A stretch of DNA of 64,000 nucleotides from Gemmatimonadota bacterium (GCA_016720805.1 JADKJZ010000014.1:193772-257771), one strand, 5' to 3'; numbered from the stretch's first letter, positions 10,496 to 60,290 are shown. Notes: generated by a model from the sequence alone, not told the origin. Numbers and translations are program-made.

Positions 10496-10564
10496 GGGTC
10501 GCGGGTCACGGGTCACTGGTCACGGCTCCTGGTCAGCGTTCACCCCTCACCCCTCACCCCTCAC
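10496..10564. repeat. Direct period-7 array: GGGTCGC, 2x GGGTCAC, TGGTCAC, GGCTCC, TGGTCAG, CGTTCAC, 3x CCCTCAC
   Basis: Read directly. One 6-nt unit, otherwise a single register. Lies in the divergent kgd/fadI gap and ends 15 nt before ATG 10580. Confidence 0.9.
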
Positions 10565-10579
10565 AACTAGATTTGCTGC

Positions 10580-11878
10580 ATGCTCCCCCCCTCCCCAGGC
10601 CGCCGCGCCGTCGTCATCGCCGGACTCCGGACCCCGTTCGCCAAGGCGGGCACGGTGCTCCAGGACGTGACCGCCGCCGACCTCGCTCGCCATTGCACCC
10701 GTGAACTCCTCTACCGCACCGAGCTCCCCGGCGACGAGGTCGACGAGGTGATCTACGGGCAGGTGGTGCCGTCGCCGTTGCTGCCCAATGTGGGCCGCGA
10801 GGTGTCGTTGCTGCCGCAGCTGCCGAGGACGGTGCCGGCGTACACCTTGAATCGTGCCTGTGCCTCCGGCGCGCAGGCGATCTGCAACGCCACCGACCAG
10901 ATCATGGCCGGGCATGCGGACGTGATCCTCGCGGGGGGCGTCGAGACGCTCTCGGATGTCCCGATCCTGCACACCCGCAAGTTCTCGCAGATTCTCGTCT
11001 CCGCCTCCAAGGCGCGCTCGCTGGGCGATCGGCTCGGGCTCTTCGCGCAGGTGCGCGGTCGCGACCTGGTGCCGGTCTCGCCGGCCATCGCCGAGCCGAG
11101 CACCGGGCAGAGCATGGGGCAGTCGGCCGAGAAGATGGCGAAGGAGAACCGGATCTCCCGCGAGGCGCAGGACGAGCTCGCGGTGATGAGTCATCAGCGT
11201 GCCGCTGCGGCGACTGCTGATGGTCGCCTGGCGATGGAGATCGCACCGTGGTTCGGCGGGCGTGGCATGGACCAGGTGATCGACAGCGACAACCTGATTC
11301 GTCCCGAGACGTCGCTCGACGCGCTCGCCAAGCTCAAGCCGGTCTTCGACCGGACCTACGGCTCGGTCACCGCGGGGAATGCCTCGGCGCTCACCGATGG
11401 TGCCGCCACCACGCTGCTCATGAGCGAGGAGAAGGCGCACGCGCTCGGCTATCGGCCGCTCACCGCGATCCGTGCCTACGCCGTCGCGGCGGTCGATCCG
11501 GGATGGCAGTTGCTGATGGGCCCTGCCTACGCGGTGCCGATCGCCCTCAAGCGCGCCGGGATTTCGTGGAACGATCTCGGATTGGTCGAGATCCACGAGG
11601 CATTCGCCTCGCAGGTGCTCTCCAACGTGCAGGCGTGGGGCTCCGCCGATTGGGCGCGTCGCCTCGGCCTCCCGGGCGTCGTCGGCGAGGTCGACTGGAG
11701 TCGCACCAACGTGATGGGTGGGTCGCTCGCGATCGGGCATCCCTTCGCCGCGACCGGTGCGCGCCTGGTGACCTCCCTCTCGAACGAGATGGCCCGGCGC
11801 GACGTGCAGTTCGGTCTCATCTCCATCTGCGCGCAGGGCGGGATGGGCTTTGCCATGGTCCTGGAGCGGGTCGGATGA
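10580..11878 (+). CDS. fadI: Acetyl-CoA C-acyltransferase (3-ketoacyl-CoA thiolase, FadI-like)
   Basis: Thiolase motifs NRACASGAQAI and GGMGFAMVLE. 432 aa. ATGA overlap with fadJ. Confidence 0.9.
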   Translation: MLPPSPGRRAVVIAGLRTPFAKAGTVLQDVTAADLARHCTRELLYRTELPGDEVDEVIYGQVVPSPLLPNVGREVSLLPQLPRTVPAYTLNRACASGAQAICNATDQIMAGHADVILAGGVETLSDVPILHTRKFSQILVSASKARSLGDRLGLFAQVRGRDLVPVSPAIAEPSTGQSMGQSAEKMAKENRISREAQDELAVMSHQRAAAATADGRLAMEIAPWFGGRGMDQVIDSDNLIRPETSLDALAKLKPVFDRTYGSVTAGNASALTDGAATTLLMSEEKAHALGYRPLTAIRAYAVAAVDPGWQLLMGPAYAVPIALKRAGISWNDLGLVEIHEAFASQVLSNVQAWGSADWARRLGLPGVVGEVDWSRTNVMGGSLAIGHPFAATGARLVTSLSNEMARRDVQFGLISICAQGGMGFAMVLERVG

Positions 11879-14010: not shown

Positions 14011-14990
14011 CTCCGCTCCGCCGCCGCGCCGTCCTCGCCCTCGTCGCGGCGGGCACCATCGTCTGGCTGCTCGCGCGTCAGGAGAGTCAGTTCTCGATCG
14101 TCGGCATGGAGGGGCCCGCCTCCTCGGCGCTGGGGTCGTTGCTCCCGGCGGTGTCGGCCGGCCTGACGATCGCGGTCTCCCTCGTCATCGTCGATGTCGT
14201 CGGCGGTCCCGTCGTCGCCGTCCTCGCCGCGATCTGCATTCTCCTCCTCCCCGATTTCCTCCCGTTGCACCGCAGCTCACTCCTCGGCCCACCGCTCCTC
14301 ACCATCACCATTGGCATGCTGGCCGTGATGCTGGCGGCGCCGCGCTTCTCGCTGGCCTACGGCGCCGTGGCCGCTGTCGGGGCGGTCTGGGTGTCTCCGC
14401 AGGCGATTGGATTGGTGCCGGCCGCGGTGGCGTGGGCGCTCCTGCAACCGAACGGACGGCGTGGACGCGTGCCACGCGCTGCGTTGTCGCTGCTGCCGCT
14501 CGGCGTTGCGGTGCTGCTCACCGCCCTGGTCGGCAGTGCCTGGCCGGCGCCGGTGCAGCTCGGTTGGCGCGGCGGCCTCGATGCGGCGCTCGGGGCCATC
14601 GGCCACGTCCTGGCCGCCCAACAGGTGCCAGCGATCACCTCACCGTCGCTTCGCTGGGTGATGGTGGCCGACACCACGCTGATTCTCCTCGCCCTCACCG
14701 TGATGGCCTGGCGTGGGGCGAGCGCGGCATCGACCCCGGAGCGTCCACGTCGGTTCTATCCGGCGATCTGTGTCCTCGCGACCAGCGTCTCGATCGGACT
14801 CCTCGCCCACGCCATGCTGCTCACGGGGGCGCCGCTTCCCAGTGGGGAGACGGCGATGTCGCTCGCAGTGCTGGCCACGATCACGATCGCGGTCTCCATC
14901 TCGGTCCTCTGGCCCCGCTGGCGCTGGTGGGGGAAGGGAATTGCGGTGGTGCTGCTTGCCGGATGGCTCGGCGCGGCCGTCATCGGCTAG
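14007..14990 (+). CDS. Polytopic membrane protein, unknown function
   Basis: Hydrophobic multi-helix sequence with GC3-rich codons. No ATG/GTG/TTG until ATG 14106. CTG 14007 overlaps the fadJ stop (CTGA). Start uncertain. Confidence 0.5.
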   Translation: MTPLRRRAVLALVAAGTIVWLLARQESQFSIVGMEGPASSALGSLLPAVSAGLTIAVSLVIVDVVGGPVVAVLAAICILLLPDFLPLHRSSLLGPPLLTITIGMLAVMLAAPRFSLAYGAVAAVGAVWVSPQAIGLVPAAVAWALLQPNGRRGRVPRAALSLLPLGVAVLLTALVGSAWPAPVQLGWRGGLDAALGAIGHVLAAQQVPAITSPSLRWVMVADTTLILLALTVMAWRGASAASTPERPRRFYPAICVLATSVSIGLLAHAMLLTGAPLPSGETAMSLAVLATITIAVSISVLWPRWRWWGKGIAVVLLAGWLGAAVIG

Positions 14991-14998
14991 AATCCAGC

Positions 14999-15481: not shown

Positions 15482-16593
15482 CCAACCTGCCGCGGTGGGA
15501 CGATGGCACCTGGCCCGGACTGCCACGACTCGACGGTCCGGTCGCCGCCGACGTCTGCGTGATCGGCCTCGGGGGCAGCGGCCTCACGGCGGTGCATGAG
15601 CTGCTCGACCTCGGCCAGCGCGTCGTCGCGGTGGACGCTGGCATCGTGGCCGGCGGCGCAGCCGGACGCAACGGTGGTTTCCTCCTCGCCGGTCCGGCCG
15701 ACTTCCACCACGATGCGGTCGCGACGCACGGGCGCGAGCGGGCCACCGCGCTCTATCGGCGCACCCTCGCGGAGATGGACCGCATGACAGCCGAGACGCC
15801 CGGGGCGATTCGGCGCGAGGGGTCGCTGCGGATCGCGGAGAGCCCCGAGGAGCTGGATGACTGCCGCGCCCAGCTCGCCGCGATGCGCGCGGACGGTCTC
15901 CCGGCGGCGTGGCATCGTGGTCCGGACGGCGAGGGACTGCTGATCCCGACGGACGGCGTCTTCCATCCGCTGCAGCGCTGCCGTGCCCTCGCGGAAGGGG
16001 CCGTGGCGCGGGGCGCGCGGCTCTATGAACAGTCGGCGGCCATCGAGATCACCGGGCAGGGTGTGCTCACGGTCGACGGCAGCGTGCTCTGCAACGCGGT
16101 GATCGTTGCCGTCGACGGCCGCCTCGAGTCGGTGCTTCCCGAATTGGCCGGACGAGTGCGCACCGCCCGGCTCCAGATGATCGCCACGGCACCCACTGAC
16201 GAGATTCGTACCAGGTTCGCCGTCTATTCGCGTTACGGTTACGAGTATTGGCAGCAGCTGGATGACGGATCCGTGCTCCTCGGCGGCATGCGTGATCGCG
16301 GTGGCGAAGGCGAATGGACCGACATCGCCGAACCGGCCGAACCGGTGCAATCGCTGCTGGAAACGCACCTTCGTGAACGGCTGCGGGTCCAGGCCCCGAT
16401 CACCCATCGCTGGGCCGGGGCCGTCGGCTACACGCCGGACGGCCTGCCGATCTTCGAGGAAGTGCGGCCGCGCGTCTGGGCCATCGGTGGCTACTCGGGC
16501 ACGGGCAACGTGGTCGGTGCCATCTGCGGGCGGGCCGTGGCACAGATGGTCGTGGAGGGGAGTGCGCCTGATGCGGCGCTCTTCCGCGCATGA
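15478..16593 (+). CDS. FAD-dependent oxidoreductase (DAO family)
   Basis: GTGA overlap with the GNAT stop. Dinucleotide motif VCVIGLGGSGLTAV. Confidence 0.8.
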   Translation: MTNLPRWDDGTWPGLPRLDGPVAADVCVIGLGGSGLTAVHELLDLGQRVVAVDAGIVAGGAAGRNGGFLLAGPADFHHDAVATHGRERATALYRRTLAEMDRMTAETPGAIRREGSLRIAESPEELDDCRAQLAAMRADGLPAAWHRGPDGEGLLIPTDGVFHPLQRCRALAEGAVARGARLYEQSAAIEITGQGVLTVDGSVLCNAVIVAVDGRLESVLPELAGRVRTARLQMIATAPTDEIRTRFAVYSRYGYEYWQQLDDGSVLLGGMRDRGGEGEWTDIAEPAEPVQSLLETHLRERLRVQAPITHRWAGAVGYTPDGLPIFEEVRPRVWAIGGYSGTGNVVGAICGRAVAQMVVEGSAPDAALFRA

Positions 16594-16946: not shown

Positions 16947-17008
16947 AGGCTTGTCCCCCGCGGAGTCCGGCAGCATCCTCCAGCATCCCACATTCAGGAG
17001 TACCCCCC

Positions 17009-17539: not shown

Positions 17540-17570
17540 GCTGGCCACTCGGCGGCTGCCCCATCCGCTG

Positions 17571-18869
17571 GTGCTGATGCTGGGGGGCGTGGCCGTCGCG
17601 GCTGCGCTCACCTGGCTGGTGCCGGCCGGCGAGTATGAACGGGTGGTGGACGCCGCCACCGGACGCACCATCGCCGTCGCCGGCACCTACCACGCGGTGC
17701 CTGACGCGCCAGTCGGGCCCTTCGCCGCCGTGATGGCGGTGCCTCGCGGCATCGCCGAGGGGATCGAGGTGATCCTCACCATCTTCCTCGTCGGTGGTGC
17801 CTGGTACCTGGTCGACAAGATCGGGACCCTCGGGCGCGCGGTGAACGCCCTCGCCTCGCGCTTTCGCGAAGGCAGCCTCCTCGCCCTCCCCCTCCTGATT
17901 CTCTTCTTCTCGATGATGGGTGCCGCCGAGAACATGCAGGAGGAGATCATCGCGCTGATCCCCGTGCTGCTGGTGCTCGGGAGCAGGCTCGGCGTCGACG
18001 CCGTCACCATGGTCGCGGCGAGTGCCGGTGCGGCAATGATCGGCAGCGCCTTCGGCCCGACCAATCCGTTCCAGGCGGGCATCGCGATGAAGCTCGCCGA
18101 GCTGCCGACCCTCTCCGGCGGCGCCCTCCGCACGGCGATGTGGATCGCGGGGACGGCACTCTGGACCGCCCTGACGTTGCGATGGGCAAGCCGGCATCGG
18201 GTGCCGGTGGCGAGTGCGCAGGTCACTCACGCGCCGTTGACCACGCGCGACGGGCTGATCCTCGCCTGCGTCACGGTGCCGCTCGCGGTCTACATCTACG
18301 GCGCCCTCCAGCTCGACTGGGGCTTCAACGAGCTCTCCTCGGCGTACTTCATCGGCGCCATCCTCGCCGGGGTCATCGCGCGTCTCAAGCTCGATGACAC
18401 CATCATCGGCTACCTCGAGGGGATGCAGTTGCTGCTCCCCGCCGCCCTGCTCGTCGGCGTGGCGCGCAGCATCACCGTCGTGCTCCAGGATGGGCACATC
18501 ATCGACACCATCCTCTACAGCATGGCCACGCCGCTCGCCAACGTCTCCACGACGGCCGCCGCGCTGCTGATGGTGCCGCTGCACGCGCTGCTGCACATCC
18601 CCGTCTCGAGTGTCAGTGGGCAGGCGGCGCTGACGATGCCGATCATGGTTCCGCTTTCGGACCTCCTCGGCGTCTCGCGCCAGGCCACGGTCCTGGCCTA
18701 CCAGGTCGGCGCCGGCCTCTGCGAATTGCTCACACCCACCAACGGCGCGCTGATGGCCGTCCTCCTCGCCGCCAAGGTTCCCTTCGGCGACTGGCTCCGC
18801 TTTGCGACCCGGGGCTATGCGCTGATGCTGGTCATCGGCATTGTGGGAATCCTCGTCGCGGTTCGCTGA
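17571..18869 (+). CDS. YfcC/DcuC-like anion carrier family membrane protein
   Basis: Polytopic protein resembling the YfcC (C4-dicarboxylate anaerobic carrier) family. The N-terminus may extend to CTG 17541. Confidence 0.7.
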   Translation: MLMLGGVAVAAALTWLVPAGEYERVVDAATGRTIAVAGTYHAVPDAPVGPFAAVMAVPRGIAEGIEVILTIFLVGGAWYLVDKIGTLGRAVNALASRFREGSLLALPLLILFFSMMGAAENMQEEIIALIPVLLVLGSRLGVDAVTMVAASAGAAMIGSAFGPTNPFQAGIAMKLAELPTLSGGALRTAMWIAGTALWTALTLRWASRHRVPVASAQVTHAPLTTRDGLILACVTVPLAVYIYGALQLDWGFNELSSAYFIGAILAGVIARLKLDDTIIGYLEGMQLLLPAALLVGVARSITVVLQDGHIIDTILYSMATPLANVSTTAAALLMVPLHALLHIPVSSVSGQAALTMPIMVPLSDLLGVSRQATVLAYQVGAGLCELLTPTNGALMAVLLAAKVPFGDWLRFATRGYALMLVIGIVGILVAVR

Positions 18870-18901
18870 TCGCCGTTCGCTTCTCGCTTCTCGAGTCTCG
18901 C
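18860..18901. repeat. Period-7 tract: GGTTCGC TGATCGC CGTTCGC TTCTCGC TTCTCGA GTCTCGC
   Basis: Six units of the form NNN-TCGC. Spans the yfcC stop (18867-18869) and ends 3 nt before the Rieske ATG 18905. Confidence 0.85.
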
Positions 18902-18904
18902 CGT

Positions 18905-19975: not shown

Positions 19976-20604
19976 GCCGACTGACCCGCTCGACCGTTGC
20001 CCTCGCCGCCCTCGTTGTCGCCTCGACCGGCTGCGCCCGGCAGGGCGCCATCAGTCCCGATCCGGCCGCCCCCGATTCCTTCGACGTGGCGATGGAGACG
20101 AGTGTCGGCACGATCACGCTGCGTAGCCGCCGTGCCTGGGCGCCGCACGGCGTCGACCGCTTCCATCGGCTGGTGAGCGAGGGGTTCTACGACGACGTCC
20201 GATTCTTCCGCGTCGTCCCCGGTTTCGTGATCCAGTTCGGCCTCTCCGGCGACCCCAAGGCCTCGGCCAAGTGGGAAGCCGCCCCGATCGCCGACGACAC
20301 CGTCAAGGTGTCCAACAAGCGCGGCACGGTGGTCTTTGCCCGCGCCGGCCAGAACAGCCGCACCTCGCAGCTCTTCTTCAACACCGTCGACAACGGCCTG
20401 ATGCTCGATGCGGCCGACGGCTTCGGCTTCCCGCCGTTCGCCGAGATCACCAGTGGCGTCGAGGTGCTGGACAAGATCTTCCAGGGCTATGGCGAGGCGC
20501 CCGACCAGGGGCAGATCATGCGGGCGGGGAATGCCTACCTGCAGGAGAACTTCCCGAAGCTCGACTACATCAAGTCGGCCAAGGTCACCAGCCACTGGCC
20601 GTAG
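19972..20604 (+). CDS. Cyclophilin-type peptidyl-prolyl isomerase, lipoprotein
   Basis: ATGA overlap. Lipobox LVVASTGC. Cyclophilin motifs FHRLVSEGFYDD, FRVVPGFVIQFG and SQLFFN. Confidence 0.85.
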   Translation: MSRLTRSTVALAALVVASTGCARQGAISPDPAAPDSFDVAMETSVGTITLRSRRAWAPHGVDRFHRLVSEGFYDDVRFFRVVPGFVIQFGLSGDPKASAKWEAAPIADDTVKVSNKRGTVVFARAGQNSRTSQLFFNTVDNGLMLDAADGFGFPPFAEITSGVEVLDKIFQGYGEAPDQGQIMRAGNAYLQENFPKLDYIKSAKVTSHWP

Positions 20605-20649
20605 CGTGCCACGGTTGCGCCCTCACGGCCCCACCCCGCTAGACCTTCA

Positions 20650-20674
20650 GTGCCGCCCAGTGGCTGGGCGGCAC
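20650..20674. terminator. Perfect 11-bp hairpin GTGCCGCCCAG-TGG-CTGGGCGGCAC
   Basis: Read directly. Lies 45 nt after the PPIase stop. No U-tract. Being palindromic, it could also serve the antisense (rho) transcript. Confidence 0.5.
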
Positions 20675-20692
20675 CACCACCGCGAGGGAACG

Positions 20693-29128: not shown

Positions 29129-29147
29129 TGGGGTCCACACTGCTCGG

Positions 29148-29168
29148 CTCTCGCTTCTCGCTTCTCGC
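29148..29168. repeat. Period-7 tract: CTCTCGC, 2x TTCTCGC
   Basis: Read directly, in the 41-nt gap between the lipoprotein start and the mazG stop. Confidence 0.8.
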
Positions 29169-29169
29169 G

Positions 29170-29505
29170 TCACGTTGCCTGCTCCTCGTTGGTCTTCTTT
29201 GTCCATCGATCGGCATCCCGCGTCTCCACCTTCGCCATCATCGCGTCGAACGCCGCCTGCAGATCGATCCCCTCGCGGTTCGCCATGCAGATCAGCACGA
29301 AGAGGATGTCGGCCATCTCCATGCCAAGGTTGCCCTCCGCCTCCTCGGGCTTCTTGGTCTTCTGGCCGAAGCGGTGGTTCACCTCGCGCGCCAGCTCGCC
29401 CACCTCTTCGCTGAGGCGCGCCATGTTGGTCAGCGGATGGAAGTAGCCCTCCTCGAACTGGGCGATCCAGGCGTCGACGCGCCGTTGGGAGTCGGTCAGG
29501 GACAT
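29170..29505 (-). CDS. mazG: MazG-family nucleotide pyrophosphohydrolase (small)
   Basis: Start moved to ATG 29505. EEVGELAREV and EMADILFVLI motifs. Confidence 0.8.
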   Translation of the reverse strand: MSLTDSQRRVDAWIAQFEEGYFHPLTNMARLSEEVGELAREVNHRFGQKTKKPEEAEGNLGMEMADILFVLICMANREGIDLQAAFDAMMAKVETRDADRWTKKTNEEQAT

Positions 29506-29508: not shown

Positions 29509-29668
29509 TGGTGGGGGTGAGGGGAAGACGGCGAACAGCGAACGGCGAACGGGGGGAAACGTACCCGCGGAAGGGGTGAGGCGAAACGCGTTGCGTCCCA
29601 ACTCCCGTTCACCGGTCACTGGTCACTGGTCACTGGTCACCCCTCACCCCTCACCCCTCACCCCTCAC
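29509..29668. repeat. Period-7 arrays in a divergent gap. Left: GGGGTGA, GGCGAAC-type. Right: CGTTCAC, CGGTCAC, 3x TGGTCAC, 4x CCCTCAC
   Basis: Left tract 29509-29557, right tract 29606-29668. The centre contains the palindrome AACGCGTT (29584-29591). Confidence 0.9.
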
Positions 29669-29717
29669 CTATACTTCCCCCGCCAAACCAACCCGCCGTC
29701 CCCAACGGAGACCCTTG

Positions 29718-29966
29718 ATGCGTTCTCGGGATCGAATTCTCAACAACCTCGAGCAGATCTACCGCGAGTCGTACGACTTCGCCAAGGGTGCCGAGGCGAC
29801 CACCCGGATGGCCGACCTCGACAACGCCTACATGCGCGACCAGCTGATGCTCGAGATCCTCCTCGACATCCGCGACCTCTTTGCCGTGACCCCGGCCGCC
29901 CCGACGACCTCCGGCCAGACCGCCCTGGAGAAACTGGCCGCGCTGAAACGGCTGGCGGGACGGTAG
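29718..29966 (+). CDS. Small hypothetical protein (82 aa)
   Basis: ATG 29718. GC3-rich codons. Predicted helical. Lies upstream of the E1 gene. Confidence 0.55.
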
Positions 29967-32154: not shown

Positions 32155-32156
32155 GG

Positions 32157-32295
32157 TCGTTAGTCGTTAGTCGTTAGTCGTTAGAAGTGGCATCATAAAG
32201 AGGCCGGCCTCCCAGTTGGGAAGCCGGCCTCTGTCTCTAACGACCAACGCCTAACGACTAACGACTAACGACTAACGACTAACGACTAACGACTA
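32157..32295. repeat. Composite palindromic element: 4x TCGTTAG, hairpin AGAGGCCGG...CCGGCCTCT, 8x CTAACGA-type
   Basis: Left array 32157-32184, hairpin 32199-32232, right array 32237-32292 plus CTA. Lies between the convergent E1 and kinase genes. Confidence 0.9.
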
Positions 32296-34269: not shown

Positions 34270-34572
34270 TCAGGATCCGGGCGGCGGGACAATGACAGTC
34301 GCGATACGGGACGCTAACCCCGGAATTTGTACCGAGATGCACCTGCGAGCAACGTGCCGAGCCGCACCTGCCGTCGCGACAGGAAGTGAAGTTTCCTCCC
34401 TGAAACGTTTGTGCCCCTCTGGCGGACCCCTCCGGGACCCATCGGCCAGCTCGGCAGGTATCTTGGGAGCAGGGCTGGCACGGCGGATGCCCCTTGCCTC
34501 CCCATCGCGCCGTGGACCGGTGCACCGCCCCCCTGCGGTCCCGTCCAGGCGCTGTGTCTCAAGGAGAACCTC

Positions 34573-37080
<2,508 letters not shown>

Positions 37081-37190
37081 TCGTTAGTCGTTAGTCGTTG
37101 GTCGTTAGGCACCTACTCGAAAGGCCGGTCTCCTTGCATGGAGGCCGGCCTTTCTCTAACGCCTAACGCCTAACGCCTAACGACCAACGA
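37081..37190. repeat. Composite palindromic element: 4x TCGTTAG-type, hairpin AAAGGCCGG...CCGGCCTTT, 3x CTAACGC + CTAACGA + CCAACGA
   Basis: Left array 37081-37108, hairpin 37120-37153, right array 37156-37190. Lies between convergent lon and the GGDEF gene. Confidence 0.9.
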
Positions 37191-37194
37191 CCCT

Positions 37195-40476: not shown

Positions 40477-40723
40477 GGTGGCCGGGGCAATGCTCCCGGT
40501 CGGGGCCAGTTCGGACTGAGTCCGGAACCGGATGGAAGGCCCGCCGTGCTCAGCCAGCCACGTCAGCGGGATTCGATGGGTCGTAGGCAGATCCAGGGGA
40601 CGACTCCTCGCGGGGGACCTGATCGGAGGGCGGAAAGACGGGGCGGAATATAGTAGTAGCGAGGGGAGAATGCCAGTCTGATGATAGGATGTAGCTATTG
40701 GGACTACTATGGCTCAATCGGAG

Positions 40724-40830
40724 GGATGATGGATGATAGATGATGGATGATTGATCAGAAATCAGTCTTGATCGCCACGCGGATGTCCGTCCGTTCGAAT
40801 CCATCGTCCATCATCCATCATCCATCATCC
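40724..40830. repeat. Inverted period-7 arrays: about 5x GGATGAT-type and about 5x ATCCATC-type
   Basis: Left array 40724-40758, right array 40799-40830, inside a lower-GC island (about 40640-40860). Confidence 0.85.
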
Positions 40831-42173: not shown

Positions 42174-43121
42174 CTATTGGTACTGGATGTAGAGAGGGAT
42201 GGGTCGCATTGCCAGCACCTGGGTGAGCGTCAGCATCGGCTTGTCATTCTTGTAGAACAGCTTCAGTCCGGCGAACTGGACCGGTCGACGGGTCACGACG
42301 AGTCCAAAAATATTCTGTTTCAGGGCCGGTGCGCCAAATCCGTCGGCATCGATGACGACCTGAACCCTCGGGTCGAGGGTGATGTCGCGCTCCCGGGTCA
42401 GCATCCCCTCGGTGAAGCGGTGAACGACCAGGATCTTGGGCGGGATCCCCGCCTCCTCGACCAACTTCGCGAGCAGCGCCTGCACCTGGTTGACGTCACT
42501 GGCGTCGAGCGTCCCGATCCGCTTGCCGGGGACCTTGCCTGGCGGCATGGCAAACTCCGGATCGATGCCGAGGTGGACATTTGGACGCCGAAGCCAGGGG
42601 AGGAGCCTGGGGATCTCGGCGGCGATGGGGCTGCGGCCGGCCTGGACGTCCAGGAAGAGCAGCCATCCTCGGGCGTCTGCCCAGGCGGCCACCTTGCCGA
42701 TCAGGGCATCGCCGTGCTGGAGCCGGTAGAGCCCACCTTCGCCCGGGTGTCCCTGCGCCACGGTGACGATCAGGTGCAGGGCGCGGAGCACGGGACGTGT
42801 GGTGTCGGCCGCTTCCCAGCGCTTGGCCGTCTCCTCCAGGCGCGCCATCATCTGCTAAGGGGGGATCTCGCCCAGGATCCCCATGCGGGTGGAGAGCGGG
42901 TTCCCGTAGTAGGCGATGATCCGGTGCTTCGGGAGCAGCGCGTCCCGCCGGGCGACGATCTGGCGGGAGGCCAGCGGGGGATGCACCGTGTCGATCGCTA
43001 CCGCCGGCCGTCGGGGCGGGGTCGCGGGGAGCTGGGCGGAGAGGGACGCGGGGGCGGTCAGGAGCAGCGCGGCGAGCAGGGGGAATCGCATCATGGCGAA
43101 GCATACACCTGCCGGGTGCAC
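42174..43121 (-). pseudogene. Secreted protein of unknown function interrupted by an in-frame TAG (possible pseudogene or sequence error)
   Basis: ORFs 42855-43121 and 42174-42851 are in the same frame, separated only by TAG (42855-42857) plus one Gln codon. The signal peptide is only on the upstream part. Confidence 0.55.
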
Positions 43122-43205
43122 CCTTGGACCACCCGAGGCGGACCGCTACGATTCAATGCGCACCAATGACCTGAAGGATCGCACATTCCGGAGCAGTGAC
43201 CCCCT

Positions 43206-44285
43206 GTGAAGATTGCCATCTCGACCGGCGGCGGCGACGCCCCCGGCCTCAATGCAGTCATTCGTGCCGCCGTCCTCACCGCGCATGATCGCGGTTGGGA
43301 AACAGTGGGCATTCGTCGTGGCTTCCACGGGCTCCTGGACGGCAGCGGTGTCGTGCCCCTCGGCGCTGCCGAAGTCAGCGGCATCACGCATCTGGGCGGT
43401 ACCATCCTCGGGAGCACGAACCGCGGCAACCCGCTCCGCTGGCCGAAGCTGCAGCCGGATGGCCGGGTGGTCGAGATCGACCGGGGCGACGAGTTGATCG
43501 CGGCCTTTCGTCGCGAGGGCATTGACGCCCTCATCTCGATTGGTGGCGACGGTTCGCTCGCGATTGCCGGCACGCTCTGGGAGCGTGGCCTTCAGGTGGT
43601 CGGCGTGCCGAAGACGATCGACAACGACGTCGTCGGCACCGACACGACCTTCGGCTTCGACACCGCGGTCTCCACCGCGACCGAGGCACTCGACAAGCTG
43701 CACACCACGGCCGAGTCGCATGACCGCGTGATGGTGGTCGAGCTGATGGGGCGCGAGGCGGGGTGGATCGCGCTGCACAGCGGCATCTCCGGAACGGCCG
43801 ACGTCATCCTGATTCCGGAAATTCCCTTCTCGCTCGAGAAGGTCTGCGAGAAGATTCGCGAGCGCGAGCGGCACGGGCGACACTTCTCGATCGTCGTCGT
43901 CGCTGAAGGGGCGCAGACCGTCGATGGCGGCCCGGTCTTCCGCGAGCGGCGGAGCGCCGGCACGGTCGACCGGCTCGGCGGCATCGGCGAACAGGTGGCG
44001 CACGGCATTGCGCAGGTCACCGGCAAGGAGACGCGCTCGCTGGTCCTCGGCCACCTCCAGCGTGGCGGCTCGCCGACGACGTTCGATCGGTTGCTCGCGC
44101 TGCGCTTCGGCTCGGCGGCGGTCCGCGCCATCGCCGACGGCGACTTCGGCACCATGGTGGCCTACACGCCGCCGGTCATCTCGCGCGTCCCGATCGCCGA
44201 CGTCGTGGGCCGGATGAAGACGGTGCCGCTCGATTCAGGGATTATCCTGACGGCGCGGCACCTGGGGATTTCGTTCGGCGACTAG
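43206..44285 (+). CDS. pfkA: 6-phosphofructokinase
   Basis: GGDAPGLNA, IGGDGS, PKTIDND, MGR and GHLQRGG. Confidence 0.9.
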   Translation: MKIAISTGGGDAPGLNAVIRAAVLTAHDRGWETVGIRRGFHGLLDGSGVVPLGAAEVSGITHLGGTILGSTNRGNPLRWPKLQPDGRVVEIDRGDELIAAFRREGIDALISIGGDGSLAIAGTLWERGLQVVGVPKTIDNDVVGTDTTFGFDTAVSTATEALDKLHTTAESHDRVMVVELMGREAGWIALHSGISGTADVILIPEIPFSLEKVCEKIRERERHGRHFSIVVVAEGAQTVDGGPVFRERRSAGTVDRLGGIGEQVAHGIAQVTGKETRSLVLGHLQRGGSPTTFDRLLALRFGSAAVRAIADGDFGTMVAYTPPVISRVPIADVVGRMKTVPLDSGIILTARHLGISFGD

Positions 44286-44416
44286 ACGGCGAACGGCGAA
44301 CGGCGAACGGCGAACGGCGAACAGCGGTAAGGGGTGAGGAGTGAGGGGGAACAAACCCCTGACCCCTCACCCCTCACCGTTTCCAACCGTTCGCTGTTCG
44401 CTGTTCGCTGTTCGCT
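44286..44416. repeat. Nested palindrome: 5x ACGGCGA + GGGGTGA-type block, loop, CCCCTCA-type block + 4x GTTCGCT
   Basis: Outer arms 44286-44327 and 44389-44416. Inner arms 44331-44348 and 44356-44378. Fills the whole pfkA/VOC convergent gap. Confidence 0.9.
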
Positions 44417-45192
44417 TACGCCGGCATCTCATACTTGATGACATAAAACATCACCCCCTGCGGTGACGCGATCCCCGCCATCCGCCCCACCGTCGGGATA
44501 TCGACGGGCGGCATGAAGACGCTGCCGCCGCTCGCGGTGGCCTTTGCGGCCGCGGCGTCGACATTGTCGACCGTCATGTACACCGCCCAGTGCGACGGGA
44601 AATTTCCCATCTCCGGCGTGATCGCCATCATCCCGCCCACCATCCGGTCGCCGGCATGGAAGACCGAGTAGTCCATCCCCGGCATGCTCATCTTCTCGAT
44701 TCGCCAGCCGAAGAGCGCGCTCCAGAAGGCGCCGGCCTTCTCGGTCTCGTACGTCGCGAGCTCGATCCAGCTCGGCGCGCCGTGATGCATCGAATCGGCC
44801 GTCATGCCTGGTGACACCCCGGCCTGCCAGACATCCATCTCGGCCCTGAACGGATCGAAGGTCTCGGCCATCCGCCCCGTCGGTCCGACGTCGAACGCCG
44901 GCTTCCCCAGCCCGCCGAGCTCGTTGGCCTTGGCCGACGCCGCGTCGGCGCTCTCGACGCGGATCATCAACCCGATGCCGGGTGGCGTGCTCGGGGGCAT
45001 GTTGGGGCCGCTCGTGTCCCACATCCCCCCGACTTCCTGACCACCCACCTTGATCAGGTGGCCGCCCATCTCCGGGATCTCGGAATACTCCCAGCCGAGC
45101 ACGCCGGCGAAGAAGGCCCGCGCATCCGACGACGCAGGCGTGAGCACGTTGATCCAGCAGAATTCGCCAATCCGACGCGGACCTGAGAGCAT
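44416..45192 (-). CDS. VOC (glyoxalase/bleomycin-resistance) family protein, two-domain
   Basis: Two tandem beta-alpha-beta-beta-beta modules (FCWINVLT ... and WIELATYE ...). 258 aa. Confidence 0.75.
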   Translation of the reverse strand: MLSGPRRIGEFCWINVLTPASSDARAFFAGVLGWEYSEIPEMGGHLIKVGGQEVGGMWDTSGPNMPPSTPPGIGLMIRVESADAASAKANELGGLGKPAFDVGPTGRMAETFDPFRAEMDVWQAGVSPGMTADSMHHGAPSWIELATYETEKAGAFWSALFGWRIEKMSMPGMDYSVFHAGDRMVGGMMAITPEMGNFPSHWAVYMTVDNVDAAAAKATASGGSVFMPPVDIPTVGRMAGIASPQGVMFYVIKYEMPA

Positions 45193-45220: not shown

Positions 45221-45419
45221 GGTGAACGGTGAACGGTTAAAAGTGACCTGTGACCGGTGACCAGTGATCAGGAACTGGTAAGGGGTGAGGGGGCGCCCAT
45301 TCGGACGGATGTTCACGTCCTCCCGTTTCACCTGCCAGCCGTAACACCTCGGTCACAGGTCACAGGTCACAGGTCACAGGTCACAGGTCACAGGTCACAG
45401 GTCACTGGTCACCGTTCAC
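45221..45419. repeat. About 200-nt mirrored period-7 structure. Left: 2x GGTGAAC, GTGACC-type, GGGGTGA-type. Right: CGGTCAC, 7x AGGTCAC, TGGTCAC, CGTTCAC
   Basis: Left tract 45221-45290, right tract 45350-45419. The pabA stop TGA lies inside the right tract. Confidence 0.9.
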
Positions 45420-45975
45420 CCAAGAAGCTCCGCACCATCTTGAGTCCCGTCGTCGTCAGCACCGACTCCGGATGGAATTGCACCCCCTCGACCGGGTGCC
45501 GACGATGCCGAATTCCCATGATCTCGCCGTCATCGGCGCGGGCGGTGAGGAGCAGTTCCGGCGGCAACGTCACCTCGACAACGGCGAGCGAGTGATACCG
45601 TGTCGCCTCGAGGGGCGACGGCAATCCGGCGAAGACACCGAGGCCGTCGTGCGTGATTGGCGAGGTGCGGCCGTGACGCGGGTGTGCCGCGCGTTCGACC
45701 GTCGCGCCGTAGGCGGTGGCGATGACCTGGTGGCCGAGGCAGACGCCGAGGATCGGGGTGGTTGGTCCGAGGCTTCGTACGACATCGAGCGCGAGACTGC
45801 ATTCCTCGGGTCGTCCCGGGCCAGGGGAGAGGATGATGTGCGTCGGCGCCATCGCGCACACTGCCTCAAGCGACAGGGCATCGTCGCGACAGACCAGCGG
45901 TGCCTCGCCGAGCTCCTCGACATAGCGCGCCAGCGTGAAGACGAACGAATCCTCGTGGTCGAGGAGGAGGATCAC
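45409..45975 (-). CDS. pabA: Glutamine amidotransferase component II (aminodeoxychorismate/anthranilate synthase)
   Basis: Start moved to GTG 45975 (GTGA overlap with the pabB stop). GVCLGHQ catalytic Cys, and HPES. Confidence 0.85.
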   Translation of the reverse strand: MILLLDHEDSFVFTLARYVEELGEAPLVCRDDALSLEAVCAMAPTHIILSPGPGRPEECSLALDVVRSLGPTTPILGVCLGHQVIATAYGATVERAAHPRHGRTSPITHDGLGVFAGLPSPLEATRYHSLAVVEVTLPPELLLTARADDGEIMGIRHRRHPVEGVQFHPESVLTTTGLKMVRSFLGER

Positions 45976-48374: not shown

Positions 48375-48465
48375 AGTGAACGGTCAACGGTGAACGGTGA
48401 ACGGGCCTCCGAGCCGCAGCGCCGCAACCGATGGCATCGATCACCGTTCACCGTTCACCGTTCAC
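48375..48465. repeat. Inverted period-7 arrays: AGTGAAC GGTCAAC 2x GGTGAAC / CGATCAC 3x CGTTCAC
   Basis: Left array 48375-48402, 35-nt centre, right array 48438-48465 ending 18 nt before ATG 48484. Confidence 0.9.
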
Positions 48466-55634: not shown

Positions 55635-55712
55635 GGATGAGGGAAGAATATGGCCCGTCGGAGCGGGGAGAGGAAACCGCCCCACGTCACCAACTGAAAC
55701 CAAGAGGCCCCC

Positions 55713-58355: not shown

Positions 58356-58894
58356 CCCGAGGCCGGCTGATCGTCGTCGTGGCGCTGCTCCTGGCTGCCG
58401 CCGGGGCAGGGCTCTGGTGGTGGCGCGGGCGTGACGGCGCCCTGCCGCTGGGCGGCGTGCCGGCGGACGCCATCGCCCTCAGTTGGAAGGGGAAGTTCAA
58501 GGGGAGCGCCACGCTCCCGGCGACGGTGAACTGGTGCCCGGGGAGTCGCGTCGCCATCGTCGAGGGACTCTCCAACGACACCGGCTTCGTGATGGTCGTC
58601 CATGCGGCCGACACGCTCGCGAAGGGGACGATGTCGGTGCTGCCGGCCGAGTTCATCGCGGCGGCTGGCGGCCCGCGCCCCGCGGCGTCCAGTGCCCTGC
58701 GCTGGCCAGCCGATACCGCGATCCTCGCGGGGTATCGCGGTCAGAATGGGCTGGTCGAGTTGGTGCCCCAGGGCGGGCGTCTTTCCGCCACCTTCACGAT
58801 CCGGATGCAACCGCCGATGTCCTCGGACACGATCAGCGTCACCGGGGCGTTCCGGAACCTGAAGGTGGAGTCGCGGGCGGTGGGCTGCCCCTGA
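58352..58894 (+). CDS. Membrane-anchored hypothetical protein
   Basis: GTGA overlap. N-terminal TM helix LIVVVALLLAAAGAGLWWW. GC3-rich codons. Confidence 0.55.
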   Translation: MTRGRLIVVVALLLAAAGAGLWWWRGRDGALPLGGVPADAIALSWKGKFKGSATLPATVNWCPGSRVAIVEGLSNDTGFVMVVHAADTLAKGTMSVLPAEFIAAAGGPRPAASSALRWPADTAILAGYRGQNGLVELVPQGGRLSATFTIRMQPPMSSDTISVTGAFRNLKVESRAVGCP

Positions 58895-58896
58895 CG

Positions 58897-58931
58897 GACG
58901 ATGATCGATGATCGATCATCGATGATCGATC
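58897..58931. repeat. Period-7 array: GACGATG ATCGATG ATCGATC ATCGATG ATCGATC
   Basis: Read directly. Self-complementary ATCGAT core. Lies 2 nt after the stop at 58894. Confidence 0.9.
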
Positions 58932-58953
58932 ACCCAGCTCTCGAATCCCCGCC

Positions 58954-60168
58954 TTGTCGAGTATCTTCCCCCTCATGGAATCCACCTACTTCCGCCGCGG
59001 TTTCGGCCTCAAGGGCGAGATCGAGGCGCAGCGCTCGGCGGACTATGCCAGCGGGATCGTCGAGACCGTCCGGGCCAACGGGAACCGGCTGCAGGTCGGT
59101 CCGCTGACCTTCCGGCTCGCCAAGGAATTCGGCTTCTGTTACGGCGTCGATCGCGCCGTCGACTATGCCTACGAGACTCGTCGCAAGTTCCCCGATCGTC
59201 GGTTGCTGTTGGTGGGCGAGATCATTCACAATCCGCACGTGAATGAGAAGCTCGCGGCGATGGGGATCATCTTCCTCGAGCACAACCCCGGCGCGGACTT
59301 CGATTTCACCGACATCACGCCCGAAGACGTCGTCATCATCCCCGCCTTCGGCGTGACGATGAAGGACTTCCAGCGGCTGCGCGCCATTGGCTGTGTGCTG
59401 GTGGACACCACCTGCGGGTCGGTCCTCAACGTCTGGAAGCGGGTCGACAGTTATGCCCGTGATGGCTACACCGCGGTCATCCACGGCAAGCACTACCACG
59501 AGGAGACGCAGGCCACGGCGTCGCAAGCGACCAAGCACGATGGCGGGAAGTACCTGGTCGTCTTCGACATGGCCGAGGCGCGTATGGTCTGCGATGTGAT
59601 CGAGGGGAAGGGCGACGCGTCTGCGCTGGCGGAGCGGTTCGCGAAGGCCTGTTCGCCCGGCTTTGATTTTACGGCTGATCTGCGGCGAATCGGGGTCGCC
59701 AACCAGACCACGATGCTCTCCGGGGAATCGCTGGCCATCGCGGCCGAGCTCCGGAAGTCGCTGATCGTGGCCTATGGCGAGGCCGCCGTGGACGATCATT
59801 TTCGCTCCTTCGACACCATCTGTTCCGCCACGCAGGAGCGTCAGGATGCCGTGGTCGAGCTGCTCCAGGAGCCGCTCGACCTGATGCTGGTGGTGGGAGG
59901 CTACAACTCCTCCAACACTTGCGCCCTGGCCGCCCTGGCCCAGAGCAAGGGCGTCCGGACCTACCACCTCGAGGATGCGGAGGGGGTGGACCCGGAGGCC
60001 GGTACCCTTCGGCACCAGCCGGTCCGCACCAAGCGGGAAGAGGTCCTGGCCGATTGGCTGGGTGACGCGAAGATCATCGGCATCACCGCCGGCGCCTCGA
60101 CCCCCAACAACAAGATCGGCGAGACGATCGCTCGGGTGGGGGCGATGATCGGCGTGGAAGTGAGGTAG
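58954..60168 (+). CDS. ispH: 4-hydroxy-3-methylbut-2-enyl diphosphate reductase, long (cyanobacterial/plant-like) form
   Basis: FGFCYGVDRAV, HNPHVN, and the Cys and His motifs of LytB. Has an N-terminal extension. Start is TTG 58954 or ATG 58975. Confidence 0.9.
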   Translation: MSSIFPLMESTYFRRGFGLKGEIEAQRSADYASGIVETVRANGNRLQVGPLTFRLAKEFGFCYGVDRAVDYAYETRRKFPDRRLLLVGEIIHNPHVNEKLAAMGIIFLEHNPGADFDFTDITPEDVVIIPAFGVTMKDFQRLRAIGCVLVDTTCGSVLNVWKRVDSYARDGYTAVIHGKHYHEETQATASQATKHDGGKYLVVFDMAEARMVCDVIEGKGDASALAERFAKACSPGFDFTADLRRIGVANQTTMLSGESLAIAAELRKSLIVAYGEAAVDDHFRSFDTICSATQERQDAVVELLQEPLDLMLVVGGYNSSNTCALAALAQSKGVRTYHLEDAEGVDPEAGTLRHQPVRTKREEVLADWLGDAKIIGITAGASTPNNKIGETIARVGAMIGVEVR

Positions 60169-60290
60169 GGAACGGCGAACGGCGAACGGCGAACGGGACG
60201 AAGGGTGAAACGTGAGACGTGAAACGGGAGCCAACGAGCGGCCCACGTTTCACGTTTAACCTTTCACCATCTCCGTACCCGTTTGCCGTC
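60167..60290. repeat. Period-7 arrays. Left: 3x GGCGAAC + GTGAAAC/GTGAGAC block. Right: GTTTCAC-type block + degenerate GTTTGCC
   Basis: Left tract 60167-60229, centre GCCAACGAGCGGC, right tract 60244-60290. Starts at the ispH stop codon. Confidence 0.85.

Follow-up and report, generated by a model that had tools for sequence, protein, structure and literature searches.

Background

Heptanucleotide repeats such as the cyanobacterial STRR, the GGGAATC and TAACTGA repeats and the paired sites of Geobacter have been described since at least 2007, lineage by lineage, and we know of no lineage-specific case with a demonstrated function or a tested origin. The STRR heptamers (CCCCAGT, TTGGTCA, CAACAGT) form several families per genome and are intergenic; to our knowledge, neither systematic inverted pairing nor a common core has been reported for them. 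Upstream of the Haemophilus hmw genes, 7-bp repeats tune expression by their copy number. The HutP site is (UAG-N4)3 and the TRAP site is (G/U)AG-N2-3 x11. Heptanucleotides are the commonest long class of simple-sequence repeats (SSRs) in many bacteria, for which polymerase slippage has been proposed (Mrazek 2007, as reported in PMC4679880 and PMC4692102). In Geobacter metallireducens, short tandem sites have been read as putative binding sites of global regulators (IHF/HU) (PMC2700814). A literature search for Gemmatimonadota together with heptamer or tandem repeats returned nothing relevant.

Heptanucleotide arrays between genes

The sequence analysed here, referred to as the window, is a stretch of 64,000 nucleotides with 68 % GC from a chromosome of the Gemmatimonadales. 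About 15 of its gaps between genes are filled by runs of 7-base repeats. Over the whole window, 17 arrays with at least three copies were found at period 7, none at periods 5 and 8-13 and one at period 6; TRF confirmed the arrays, and shuffled sequence contained no arrays at periods of 5 or more. Recurring 4-mers showed the same excess over neighbouring periods (293 at period 7 versus 1-15 at other periods). As in prokaryotic heptanucleotide SSRs of the LSSR 5-11 class, the units, within the range of 5-11 nt, follow each other head to tail beyond chance length and, not being multiples of three, occupy non-coding sites: all arrays are intergenic or overlap at most 22 nt of an ORF end. Copy numbers range from 3 to 10 with no preferred number. 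Further arrays lie beyond positions 10496-60290, at 6649-6785 and 62682-63422.

The genes adjoining the arrays are housekeeping genes (sucA, lon, pfk, ispH). Because the GC3-based gene calls were crude and noisy, gene orientation at array-bearing gaps was taken from Pfam instead. A CRISPR array was ruled out, as the 7-nt units are contiguous and have no spacers. No Rfam matches at gathering thresholds and no tRNA or tmRNA genes were found in the window. The arms, centres and single arrays are as follows:

6649..6678: left arm (TAGTCGT)x4, with the stop of the HNH ORF (6655-6657) inside the arm
6691..6736: central GC-rich hairpin between the arms
6749..6785: right arm (CTAACGA)x5, holding the 2-oxoglutarate dehydrogenase stop (6770-6772, - strand)
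10482..10564: divergent gap with a short left arm GTGACCTGTAACC and a ten-unit right arm (10496-10564) of NGGTCAC, one 6-nt unit, CGTTCAC and 3x CCCTCAC; the thiolase ATG follows 15 nt on
18856..18900, + strand: single array with constant TCGC and NNN = GGT, TGA, CGT, TTC, TTC, GTC; it contains the DcuC stop, and the next ATG lies 4 nt past its end
29143..29174, + strand: single array (TTCTCGC)x3 flanked by two - strand genes; read in their sense, it is GCGAGAA right after a stop
29510..29552: left arm in a divergent gap, with (GCGAACR)x3 following a GGGGTGA-type block
29605..29669: right arm in a single register, CGTTCAC, CGGTCAC, 3x TGGTCAC, 4x CCCTCAC
32156..32184: left arm (GTCGTTA)x4, beginning 1 nt past the E1 dehydrogenase stop
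32199..32232: central terminator-like hairpin AGAGGCCGGCC...GGCCGGCCTCT
32239..32295: right arm (CTAACGA)x8, providing the stop of the Ser/Thr kinase gene (- strand)
37070..37106: left arm (TTAGTCG)x4-5, with the Lon stop (37078-37080) inside the arm
37119..37154: central hairpin GAAAGGCCGG...CCGGCCTTTC, kept at the Lon-GGDEF gap in relatives
37156..37192: right arm (CTAACGC)x4 + CTAACGA + CCAACGA, its end 2 nt from the GGDEF gene stop
40721..40755: left arm (GGATGAT)x4-5
40800..40830: right arm (CCATCAT)x4
44286..44349: left arm immediately past the PFK stop, (ACGGCGA)x5 followed, with a 3-nt offset, by an inner GGGGTGA/GGAGTGA block
44355..44416: right arm, inner CCCTGAC + 2x CCCTCAC, then (TGTTCGC)x4, ending at the glyoxalase stop
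45221..45271: left arm, 2x GGTGAAC, then GTGACCT, GTGACCG, GTGACCA, GTGATCA
45351..45420: right arm, 8x AGGTCAC, TGGTCAC, CGTTCAC, supplying the GATase gene stop; relatives have 2-3 copies only
48376..48404: left arm (GTGAACG)x4 in a divergent gap
48435..48465: right arm CGATCAC + 3x CGTTCAC, with an ATG 18 nt beyond
58899..58930: self-complementary CGATGAT + CGATCAT array, beginning 4 nt past a stop
60170..60229: left arm after the IspH/LytB stop, (GAACGGC)x4, then GTGAAAC, GTGAGAC, GTGAAAC offset by 2 nt
60244..60268: right arm GTTTCAC, GTTTAAC, CTTTCAC
62682..62708: palindromic CGATGAT/CGATCAT array reaching to the YceI stop
63389..63422: palindromic array of GATGATC alternating with GATCATC, with the neighbouring gene's stop (63401-63403) inside

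Inverted arms, polarity and gene ends

Most arrays form inverted pairs with mirror-image arms, and the folding of paired arms yields -57 to -105 kcal/mol (z = -8 to -16). In three convergent gaps, a canonical GC hairpin flanked by A- and T-rich runs occupies the centre. A GC-rich stem-loop as in intrinsic terminators is present at 6691-6736, 32199-32232 and 37119-37154 and in the arm pairs. The pairs also have a common polarity, with a G- and purine-rich left arm in 31 of 34 inverted pairs when relatives, all loci and periods 7 and 8 are counted. On either strand, reading towards the centre gives an arm rich in purines and G, (R-Y-G-A)NNN, and reading outwards a pyrimidine-rich arm, NNN(T-C-R-Y), free of start codons and, with the exception of the CTAACGA family (TAA), of stop codons. 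The arms are frequently mismatched at N1 and are homogenised independently, with a systematic difference between arms at one position. No asymmetry of G-U versus A-C that would mark a functional RNA strand or favour the sense RNA was found, and neither strand folds consistently more stably than the other.

The arrays extend right up to coding sequences and often provide their stop codons. A stop lies inside or within 11 nt of an array at all 16 adjacent gene ends, and inside or overlapping it at 10 of them. In most families of the lineage the centre-directed arm carries TGA or TAG, and with 7 = 1 mod 3, any stop triplet of the unit comes up in all three frames. Of the GTCGTNN variants, those amplified in different lineages at the E1-kinase and Lon-GGDEF gaps end in TA, GA, AA or AG, exactly the four of 16 dinucleotides that create a stop in this unit. 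The GCGA-type families (GCGAACG, GCGAGAA) have no stop triplet, and in more distant relatives the polarity persists although stops are lacking; the stop enrichment could therefore be a by-product of purine richness. In convergent and tandem gaps the arrays lie downstream of genes. Three pairs (10482-10564, 29510-29669 and 48376-48465) have divergently transcribed genes on either side, whose transcripts they cannot terminate. Several arrays end 4-48 nt 5' of start codons, and most are found at gene 3' ends or in convergent gaps. The strict orientation of the arrays suggests a role in marking gene ends.

A common core among the unit types

The first-pass annotation had proposed that nearly all units consist of three variable nucleotides and a TC(A/G)(C/T) core, and every unit listed there was found in the sequence. 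The succession CGTTCAC, CGGTCAC, 3x TGGTCAC, 4x CCCTCAC does run in one register at 29606-29668, and the 6-nt unit reported within 10496-10564 is GGCTCC (10524-10529). The 7-nt register, said to be kept where different blocks join, is maintained at 31 of 36 junctions between differing NNN, which fall at multiples of 7; the other five core spacings are 20, 5, 17, 17 and 9 nt. The CTAACGA family had been set apart as the only one that does not fit, but this does not hold, since its opposite strand has TCGT and it is one substitution away from the TCAC unit GACTCAC. In relatives, GACTCAC occupies the gaps where the window has CTAACGA.

A sequence logo had been suggested as a check on the core. 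When 20 amplified unit types were aligned with free rotation and strand, T-C-R was recovered without assuming a core, with an information content of 5.38 bits versus 4.36 +/- 0.21 (maximum 4.83) for shuffled units. TCRY is present on one strand in 22 of the 23 arrays of the window; its chance in a random circular heptamer of array composition is p = 0.10 for a given strand and 0.20 for either strand. A first scan for 4-mers with heterogeneous flanks was run without period controls, was confounded by common GC-rich 4-mers and was redone with controls. Among the 64 degenerate 4-mers, GTRR and TCRY then ranked highest by number of heterogeneously flanked period-7 runs (35 and 32, compared to 1.0 and 3.5 at control periods, respectively), and GTRR includes GTGA, the complement of TCAC.

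Comparing the core with NNN, as had also been proposed, showed that changes between neighbouring units concentrate at NNN (p = 4e-6). N1 is by far the most variable position and differs even between paired arms. Within the core, it is the fourth position (Y) that holds least well in relatives. Broken-core units remain single and are never amplified. As such units stay single and the core positions vary less, the core appears to be under constraint. The unit types are linked in a largely connected network of single substitutions in which the A/G and C/T alternatives of the core are transitions, and the same small vocabulary of units reappears at many loci and in relatives whose proteins are as little as 62 % identical. 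The common core beyond chance, the substitution network and the recurring vocabulary bear out the earlier view that these are not unrelated repeats. Of the two origins it offered, a recognition code or a slippage seed, neither is singled out by the data: copy-number differences show slippage, and the core indicates a constraint. No support was obtained for the significance attributed to 21 bp as two helical turns and seven codons, because array lengths taken modulo 21 have an even distribution, and multiples of three are not favoured among the copy numbers. The TRF row of period 21 at 45351-45419 consists merely of three 7-mers.

Turnover among relatives

Within the small common vocabulary, array units turn over fast. 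The unit (TGTGACC) is present eight times in the window and two to three times at the same gap, with flanks kept, in two relatives (L081 and L082), and (CGTTCAC) is x2 versus x3 at the same gap. This copy-number polymorphism among related genomes, again as in LSSR 5-11, shows that the arms gain and lose units by replication slippage. Units are also replaced. TTAGTCG occurs x18 at three loci of the window, versus TGAGTCC and TGAGTCG at three loci of L110. The Lon-GGDEF gap holds four unrelated unit families among relatives with 92-96 % Lon identity, and its central hairpin is conserved while the arrays change. At orthologous gaps the arms co-vary through unit replacement and remain complementary, with mirrored block order, even when the unit sequence is exchanged. 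In L111 the E1-kinase gap comprises only 17 nt, and two other relatives (L007 and L009) have no arrays. More distant Gemmatimonadales carry unrelated units without the core, or units of period 8, in the same architecture.

Interpretation

The explanation favoured here, to which slightly less than an even chance is given, is that slippage-driven heptanucleotide repeats serve as the arms of intergenic hairpins and are filtered by constraints of transcription and translation. Heptanucleotide SSRs would make up or lengthen both arms of palindromes between genes. The resulting modules could act as punctuation at gene boundaries, stopping translation in whichever frame and then, through a hairpin, possibly ending or insulating transcripts in both directions, and the purine/pyrimidine polarity would be an extension of the A-tract/U-tract polarity of bidirectional intrinsic terminators. 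Arm complementarity and unit variants common to several loci might be kept by selection for pairing or, alternatively, by templated copying between arms and between loci. The TC(A/G)(C/T) core would be the constrained part of a vocabulary derived from a few units by single-base steps, with YGA corresponding to the stop TGA or its transition neighbour CGA. A terminator-consensus scan of 29-49 kb found no site at the arrays, shuffles contained more terminator-like sites than the scanned sequence, and a sigma-70 promoter scan of the same region found nothing at the arrays. The U-tract 3' of the stem is short or absent, the central hairpins being trailed by short TTTC or TCT runs only. The three divergent-gap pairs, the GCGA-type families without stops, the N1 mismatches, the missing G-U asymmetry and the dispensability of the arrays in relatives speak against this explanation, and four families in one gap represent a faster change than point mutation and slippage easily explain.

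An unlikely alternative is that the arrays are a cis code for a trans-acting oligomeric protein binding RNA, ssDNA or dsDNA, which would read a T-C-R (or Y-G-A) hexamer plus one free spacer base every 7 nt and control the hairpin by binding an arm. The combination of a T-C-R/Y-G-A core, a fixed period of 7 and a variable NNN resembles HutP/TRAP-type protein arrays, and the N1 differences within pairs, the lack of amplified core-broken units and the recurrence of the vocabulary at many loci and in relatives are all consistent with a reader. Variants that are lineage-specific yet common to loci, such as TTAGTCG in the window and TGAGTCC/TGAGTCG in L110, would be explained by co-evolution of code and reader, as of site and factor. 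In addition, the TAGTCGT arrays sit just upstream of terminator hairpins and match UAG-N4, the HutP motif. By this analogy, a genome-wide code of (Y-G-A)-N4 on RNA, or T-C-R opposite, could be read by a HutP/TRAP-like oligomeric protein that, by sitting on one palindrome arm at dozens of gene boundaries, would govern hairpin formation and thereby globally control termination or readthrough, a more specific idea that is somewhat less probable still. However, the window ORFs scanned include no candidate binding protein, a reader would have to be tolerant, or several would be needed, to cover at least eight NNN classes, no copy number between 3 and 10 is preferred, and arrays are missing at the same gaps in some close relatives. 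The unrelated units and period 8 of distant relatives, in the same architecture, point to a structural or mutational cause instead.

A purely mutational cause, which we also consider improbable, would make the arrays a neutral by-product of heptamer slippage that escapes mismatch repair, is favoured by the polymerase footprint and builds up where selection is weak, with the core reflecting only common descent and transition bias. The general abundance of heptanucleotide SSRs, for which slippage has been proposed, the copy-number variation, the independent homogenisation of arms that differ systematically at one position, the loss of arrays in relatives and the network of single substitutions with its R and Y transitions agree with this account. 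However, slippage alone would not be expected to yield the observed polarity (31/34), to maintain complementarity through unit replacement, to concentrate changes at NNN (p = 4e-6), to retain stop-creating variants or to place arrays against stop codons at 16/16 ends.

It is very unlikely that modules of array, centre and inverted array are non-autonomous mobile elements of the REPIN or MITE type that insert beside stop codons and into one another's loops. Insertion could account for nested blocks whose register is shifted symmetrically in both arms (17 nt at 44286-44416) and for an inner block exchanged between strains with identical PFK protein. In one relative (L116), replacement at the Lon-GGDEF gap extends to entire cassettes with their centres, and two L116 modules have common arms and a similar loop. 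A REP-like palindrome lies at the centre of three array pairs in L110 and is absent from the window. Nevertheless, the centres of window modules with the same unit are not copies of each other beyond generic GGCCGGCC hairpins (blastn-short), the central hairpin of the Lon-GGDEF gap is conserved as the arrays change, target-site duplications were not observed, and the 30 window ORFs scanned include no transposase of either the RAYT or the TnpA type.

Least probable of all are contingency or tuning loci, in which the 5' copy number adjusts expression by shifting promoter or leader spacing: several arrays do end 4-48 nt upstream of starts and vary in copy number between relatives, but most are located at gene 3' ends or in convergent gaps, the neighbours are housekeeping genes (sucA, lon, pfk, ispH), the organism belongs to a free-living soil or sediment lineage, and inverted pairing and polarity would be left unexplained. 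Chi-like sites flanking a breakable palindrome, Rho rut sites with a UC dinucleotide every 7 nt, Shine-Dalgarno/anti-Shine-Dalgarno mimicry by GGGGTGA/CCCTCAC and ECF-sigma -35-like GAAC motifs were considered and not adopted; these ideas fitted some families only or were beyond test here.

Comparison with known systems

As markers of gene ends, the arrays would offer a high-GC genome with weak U-tracts a new way to terminate; as targets of a protein reader, they would amount to a global regulatory code. The features seen in this lineage together turn the question of slippage or function into testable predictions on transcript ends, readthrough and binding proteins.

HutP and TRAP sites share with the arrays a short conserved core, variable spacers, a fixed period (7 nt for HutP) and a position just upstream of a terminator hairpin. 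They differ in being single sites in one operon with a known ring protein, whereas dozens of loci and several cores are involved here. Among the STRR heptamers, TTGGTCA resembles TGGTCAC, although phylum and GC content differ. Like REP/BIME/REPIN elements and bidirectional intrinsic terminators, the modules are intergenic palindromes, often in convergent gaps, with a GC hairpin that is A-rich 5' and T-rich 3'. In contrast to REP elements, whose copies have a sequence of about 35 nt in common and require a RAYT transposase, their arms are tandem heptamers; in the window, the module centres are not copies of one imperfect palindrome of about 20-40 nt, and no RAYT (Y1/HUH) domain was present in the 30 ORFs scanned in the 64-kb window. 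Terminators have unique stems and a U-tract, which is weak or missing here.

The 7-8 nt tandem arrays of Geobacter metallireducens (GTTGCTYN x4, TCTCCGTS x3, MTYCTGA x5) are similar in their opposite-strand pairs at variable distance, their many intergenic places and their specificity to one species, but have fixed copy numbers of 3-5 and different sequences (PMC2700814). The TAACTGA repeats of Beggiatoaceae, cyanobacteria and Bacteroidetes are likewise heptamers at gene boundaries with stops in all frames that sometimes overlap gene ends (PMC4679880). They consist of a single unit, almost always directly repeated apart from one indirect set, and their stop-bearing strand lies ahead of starts, whereas here this strand follows genes and the strand before starts is stop-free. 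The GGGAATC repeats of Xanthomonas and GGGGA(C/T)T repeats of Nostoc comprise one G-quadruplex-prone family per genus without the TCRY core (PMC4692102), while GGGGTGA is the only family here that could form a quadruplex.

The closest match is LSSR 5-11, with tandem intergenic 7-nt units that are over-represented and vary in length between relatives; as far as this class is characterised in the accounts available (Mrazek et al. 2007, via PMC4679880 and PMC4692102), the present arrays differ from it by many families with a common core, near-obligatory inverted pairing, strict purine/pyrimidine polarity and abutment to stop codons. The Gemmatimonadales arrays are thus a lineage-specific form of the bacterial heptanucleotide excess, and an unusually informative one, since families side by side, constraint on the core, polarity, coupling to stop codons and turnover between strains are all visible in it.

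Results

The window is a bacterial chromosome segment with 68% GC and contains housekeeping genes for 2-oxoglutarate dehydrogenase, thiolase, Lon, phosphofructokinase (PFK), IspH and a Ser/Thr kinase. The Lon protein encoded here is most similar to those of uncultured Gemmatimonadales: identity is 91% in L001, one of the loci fetched from relatives (L numbers), and reaches 96% in contigs from metagenomes; none of the best 120 matches comes from a cultured organism. Homologues of the longest Lon ORF have 815-860 aa and cover only about 94%; the true start is probably located ~40-55 codons 3' of position 34411. The features referred to below are:

6166-6657, + strand: HNH endonuclease ORF, 163 aa (PF01844, E = 3e-9)
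29718-29966, + strand: conserved ORF, 82 aa, no Pfam match
32156-32295: array pair of the E1/kinase gap
34411-37080: longest Lon ORF
37070-37192: array pair of the Lon/GGDEF gap
44286-44416: array pair of the PFK/glyoxalase gap
58899-58930, 62682-62708 and 63389-63422: CGATGAT/CGATCAT arrays

About 25 runs of 7-nt units were detected in the window with a tandem-repeat finder (TRF) and our own period scan. Arrays with at least three copies numbered 17 at period 7 and one at period 6, with none at periods 5 and 8-13, and shuffled sequence contained no such arrays at periods 5 and above. Together the arrays occupy 1,011 nt (about 1.6%) of the window and are located in about fifteen intergenic gaps. 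The first-pass annotation had placed the arrays at 10496-60290; they are present there, but further arrays lie outside this range at 6649-6785 and 62682-63422. Both arrays that it had spelled out as examples match exactly, including a lone 6-nt unit, GGCTCC, at 10524-10529.

The proposed unit grammar of three variable nucleotides followed by a TC(A/G)(C/T) core (NNN-TCRY) is statistically supported, as 22 of the 23 window arrays carry TCRY. For random circular heptamers with the base composition of the arrays, the chance of containing it is 0.10 for one given strand and 0.20 if either strand counts. In a core-free alignment of 20 amplified unit types from the window and close relatives, a sampler choosing strand and rotation for each unit settled on T-C-R, the two positions after it being partly informative, and the total information was 5.38 bits compared to 4.36 +/- 0.21 (maximum 4.83) in shuffled units. 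A scan of all 64 x-y-(R/Y)-(R/Y) patterns over period-7 runs with flanks differing by at least two bases ranked GTRR (35 junctions) and TCRY (32) highest, compared to 1.0 and 3.5 at control periods; GTRR includes GTGA, the complement of TCAC. Differences between neighbouring units were distributed as 44, 21 and 25 over NNN and 8, 25, 13 and 10 over TCRY, so that 62% fall into NNN versus 43% expected (p = 4e-6), a count that takes in orthologous arrays and is therefore not fully independent. The claim that different blocks keep one 7-nt register also held, with 31 of 36 neighbouring cores with different NNN spaced at multiples of 7. Core-broken units (TCAG, TCGA, CTTC, TAAC, TGAC, TTAC) are singletons in the window and NNN variants form blocks. 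The suggested helical phasing, in which three units span 21 bp, found no support.

Most arrays form the two arms of a palindrome around a centre, the blocks of the left arm recurring reverse-complemented and in mirrored order in the right arm. The predicted folding energies of these pairs lie between -57 and -105 kcal/mol (z-scores between -8 and -16). A GC-rich hairpin forms the centre in three convergent gaps (HNH ORF/sucA, E1/kinase and Lon/GGDEF), with the form AAAGGCCGGC...GCCGGCCTTT in the latter two. Elsewhere the arrays themselves are the stem, such as (GCGAACR)x4, a 9-nt loop and (GCCGTTC)x4 between the glyoxalase and PFK stops of L083. The CGATGAT/CGATCAT arrays are self-complementary, ATCGATGATCGATCATCGAT being its own reverse complement, act as palindromes without a spacer and are rich in ATCGAT, TGATCA and GATC sites.

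On either strand of every window pair, the arm read toward the centre is (R-Y-G-A)NNN and the arm read away from it is NNN(T-C-R-Y). The sense strand right after a stop codon thus shows GTGA-, ATGA-, GCGA- or TAG-type units, and right before a start codon TCAC-, TCGC- or TCAT-type units, which lack ATG, GTG, TTG and stop triplets. Over all fetched loci, the G- and purine-rich arm lies on the left in 31 of 34 inverted pairs, some of them redundant or orthologous. Since these pairs include periods 7 and 8 and quite different units, the purine/pyrimidine polarity reaches further than the TCRY core.

At all 16 gene 3' ends adjoining arrays, the stop codon lies inside the array or at most 11 nt away, at 15 within 4 nt, and at 10 inside or overlapping it. 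Because 7 = 1 mod 3, three successive units with TGA or TAG place a stop in every frame. Such a triplet is present in about three quarters of the left-arm families in the window, compared to 26% expected; the GCGA families have no stop triplet. Stop usage at the 16 ends was TAG 7 and TGA 7, several of them supplied by array units; TAG being as common as TGA is expected to be unusual at 68% GC. The HNH ORF is directly followed by an array pair, the first unit of which contains the stop codon of the ORF.

The CTAACGA family had been regarded as the only one outside the grammar. Its in-register form is GACTAAC, and at the same two gaps four relatives (L110, L114, L116, L058) carry GACTCAC or GACTCAG, with L083 mixed, so that the window family derives from a TCAC-type unit by one base change and is not a misfit. 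In the left-arm form GTCGT-NN, the amplified dinucleotides are TA (window, L083), GA (the same four relatives), and AA and AG (L115), exactly the four of 16 that make a stop triplet in this array context; GTCGT-TG occurs as single units at array ends only. Although the sample is small, retention of the stop triplet itself, beyond purine richness, is best supported by this pattern. TTAGTCG has 18 copies at three window loci and TGAGTCS is absent from the window arrays; L110 carries TGAGTCC or TGAGTCG at three loci. Such variants common to several loci of one genome suggest that units are copied from locus to locus or that one selective agent acts on all of them.

Arrays of the same type occur in close relatives (L001-L003, L008, L010, L018, L058, L081-L085, L110, L114-L116), with the window's small vocabulary of GTGAACG, GTGACCN, GGGGTGA, GCGAACG, GCGAGAA, GATGATG, CGATGAT and TAGTCGT/TGAGTCG. 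More distant Gemmatimonadales have core-less units (GGGAGCT, GGGAGTC) or octamers (CAGCGGGG/CCCCGCTG, GGCGGTAC/TACCGCCG) and retain the inverted arrangement, the left arm being the G-rich one. Period-8 arrays, including these octamers, AGGCGGTA and others, were seen with this arrangement in L052, L020, L039, L016, L031 and L046; some of the distant genomes with period 8 carry period-7 arrays too.

Turnover is evident at orthologous gaps. One gap with conserved flanks holds (TGTGACC) eight times versus two to three times. In relatives with 92-96% Lon identity, the Lon/GGDEF gap contains TTAGTCG, (G/C)TGAGTC, CGATGAT or GCGAGAA in a constant architecture, and despite this replacement the opposite arm always bears the matching complement. 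The arrays are dispensable, since this gap is array-free in some relatives and the E1/kinase gap of L111 has only 17 nt. Contigs with a PFK protein 100% identical to that of the window (L107 and L108, compared to window 43000-44440) differ from it in the inner block of the palindrome 3' of pfk, in both arms; recombination is likely here because the flanks have diverged as well. The DNA upstream of the gene has clearly diverged, which together with the changed block suggests a recombination mosaic around pfk.

Several further differences between the loci were observed. In the window as in relatives (L110 5048-5296, L111 3634-3882 and L116 5157-5405), the 82-aa ORF precedes the E1 dehydrogenase gene; an array pair is located upstream of this ORF in the window and between it and E1 in L110 and L116. 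A DoxX-like gene that the window lacks separates pfk from the glyoxalase gene in L110 (19726-20235) and L116 (19683-20192), followed by an array pair with a different unit, TGAGTCG. In L110 (1.29-Mb contig Ga0498917_0000001, Lon identity 93%), a REP-like palindrome (CAGCCGCGGCCGTCAGRCCGCGG and inverse; 5340-5362, 16169-16191, 20271-20293, 20309-20331) forms the centre in three different pairs of heptamer arrays; it was found neither in the window nor in the other 112 loci.

Discussion

The grammar had been taken as a sign of a recognition code or a slippage seed rather than unrelated repeats. This is partly right: the repeats are related and not independent, and recognition and slippage are both candidate causes. 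The explanation tentatively preferred here is that the arms are built by slippage, kept complementary, and fixed in polarity by constraints tied to transcription and translation. Slippage makes and resizes the arms; their observed complementarity may be due to selection for pairing or to templated copying. The same constraints would account for the lower variability of the core, which is the complement of (R)(Y)GA, relative to NNN. A-tract/U-tract polarity is required of every bidirectional terminator, and arms rich in purines on the 5' side and in pyrimidines on the 3' side would resemble an extended form of it. The stop-bearing orientation beside gene ends would render junction indels harmless. 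However, the U-tracts at the arrays are weak, three array pairs lie in divergent gaps, N1, the first NNN position, shows mismatches between arms, and the stop-free GCGA families, the dispensability of the arrays and the very fast unit replacement also speak against this explanation.

Recognition of a 7-nt code by a trans-acting factor is doubtful, since no such protein is known and unrelated units elsewhere yield the same architecture. Nevertheless, it best accounts for N1 being free to vary, for core-broken units not being amplified and for variants specific to one genome. Equally unlikely is purely neutral slippage, which leaves polarity, arm covariation and position bias unexplained despite accounting for the abundance and variability of the arrays. 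Mobile palindromic modules would fit the symmetric off-register nesting of blocks, the cassette replacement and the REP-like insert in L110, but are improbable given that the centres in the window are not paralogous. A role as expression tuning knobs, which only a minority of loci fit, is the least probable.

Compared to known systems, the arrays are prokaryotic heptanucleotide simple-sequence repeats and show all defining features of this class that can be tested here. As cited in PMC4679880 and PMC4692102, Mrazek (2007) reported heptanucleotide repeats as the commonest long simple-sequence repeats in many bacteria and proposed polymerase slippage with a footprint of about 7 nt as the cause. 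Three repeats described elsewhere, none with a demonstrated function, come closest to the window arrays. Geobacter metallireducens has paired hepta- and octanucleotide sites on opposite strands, for which a role as regulator sites was guessed (PMC2700814). Inverted pairs are also found among the GGGAATC repeats of Xanthomonas, which differ from species to species at conserved gaps (PMC4692102), and the TAACTGA repeats share with them the three-frame stops and the overlap with gene ends (PMC4679880).
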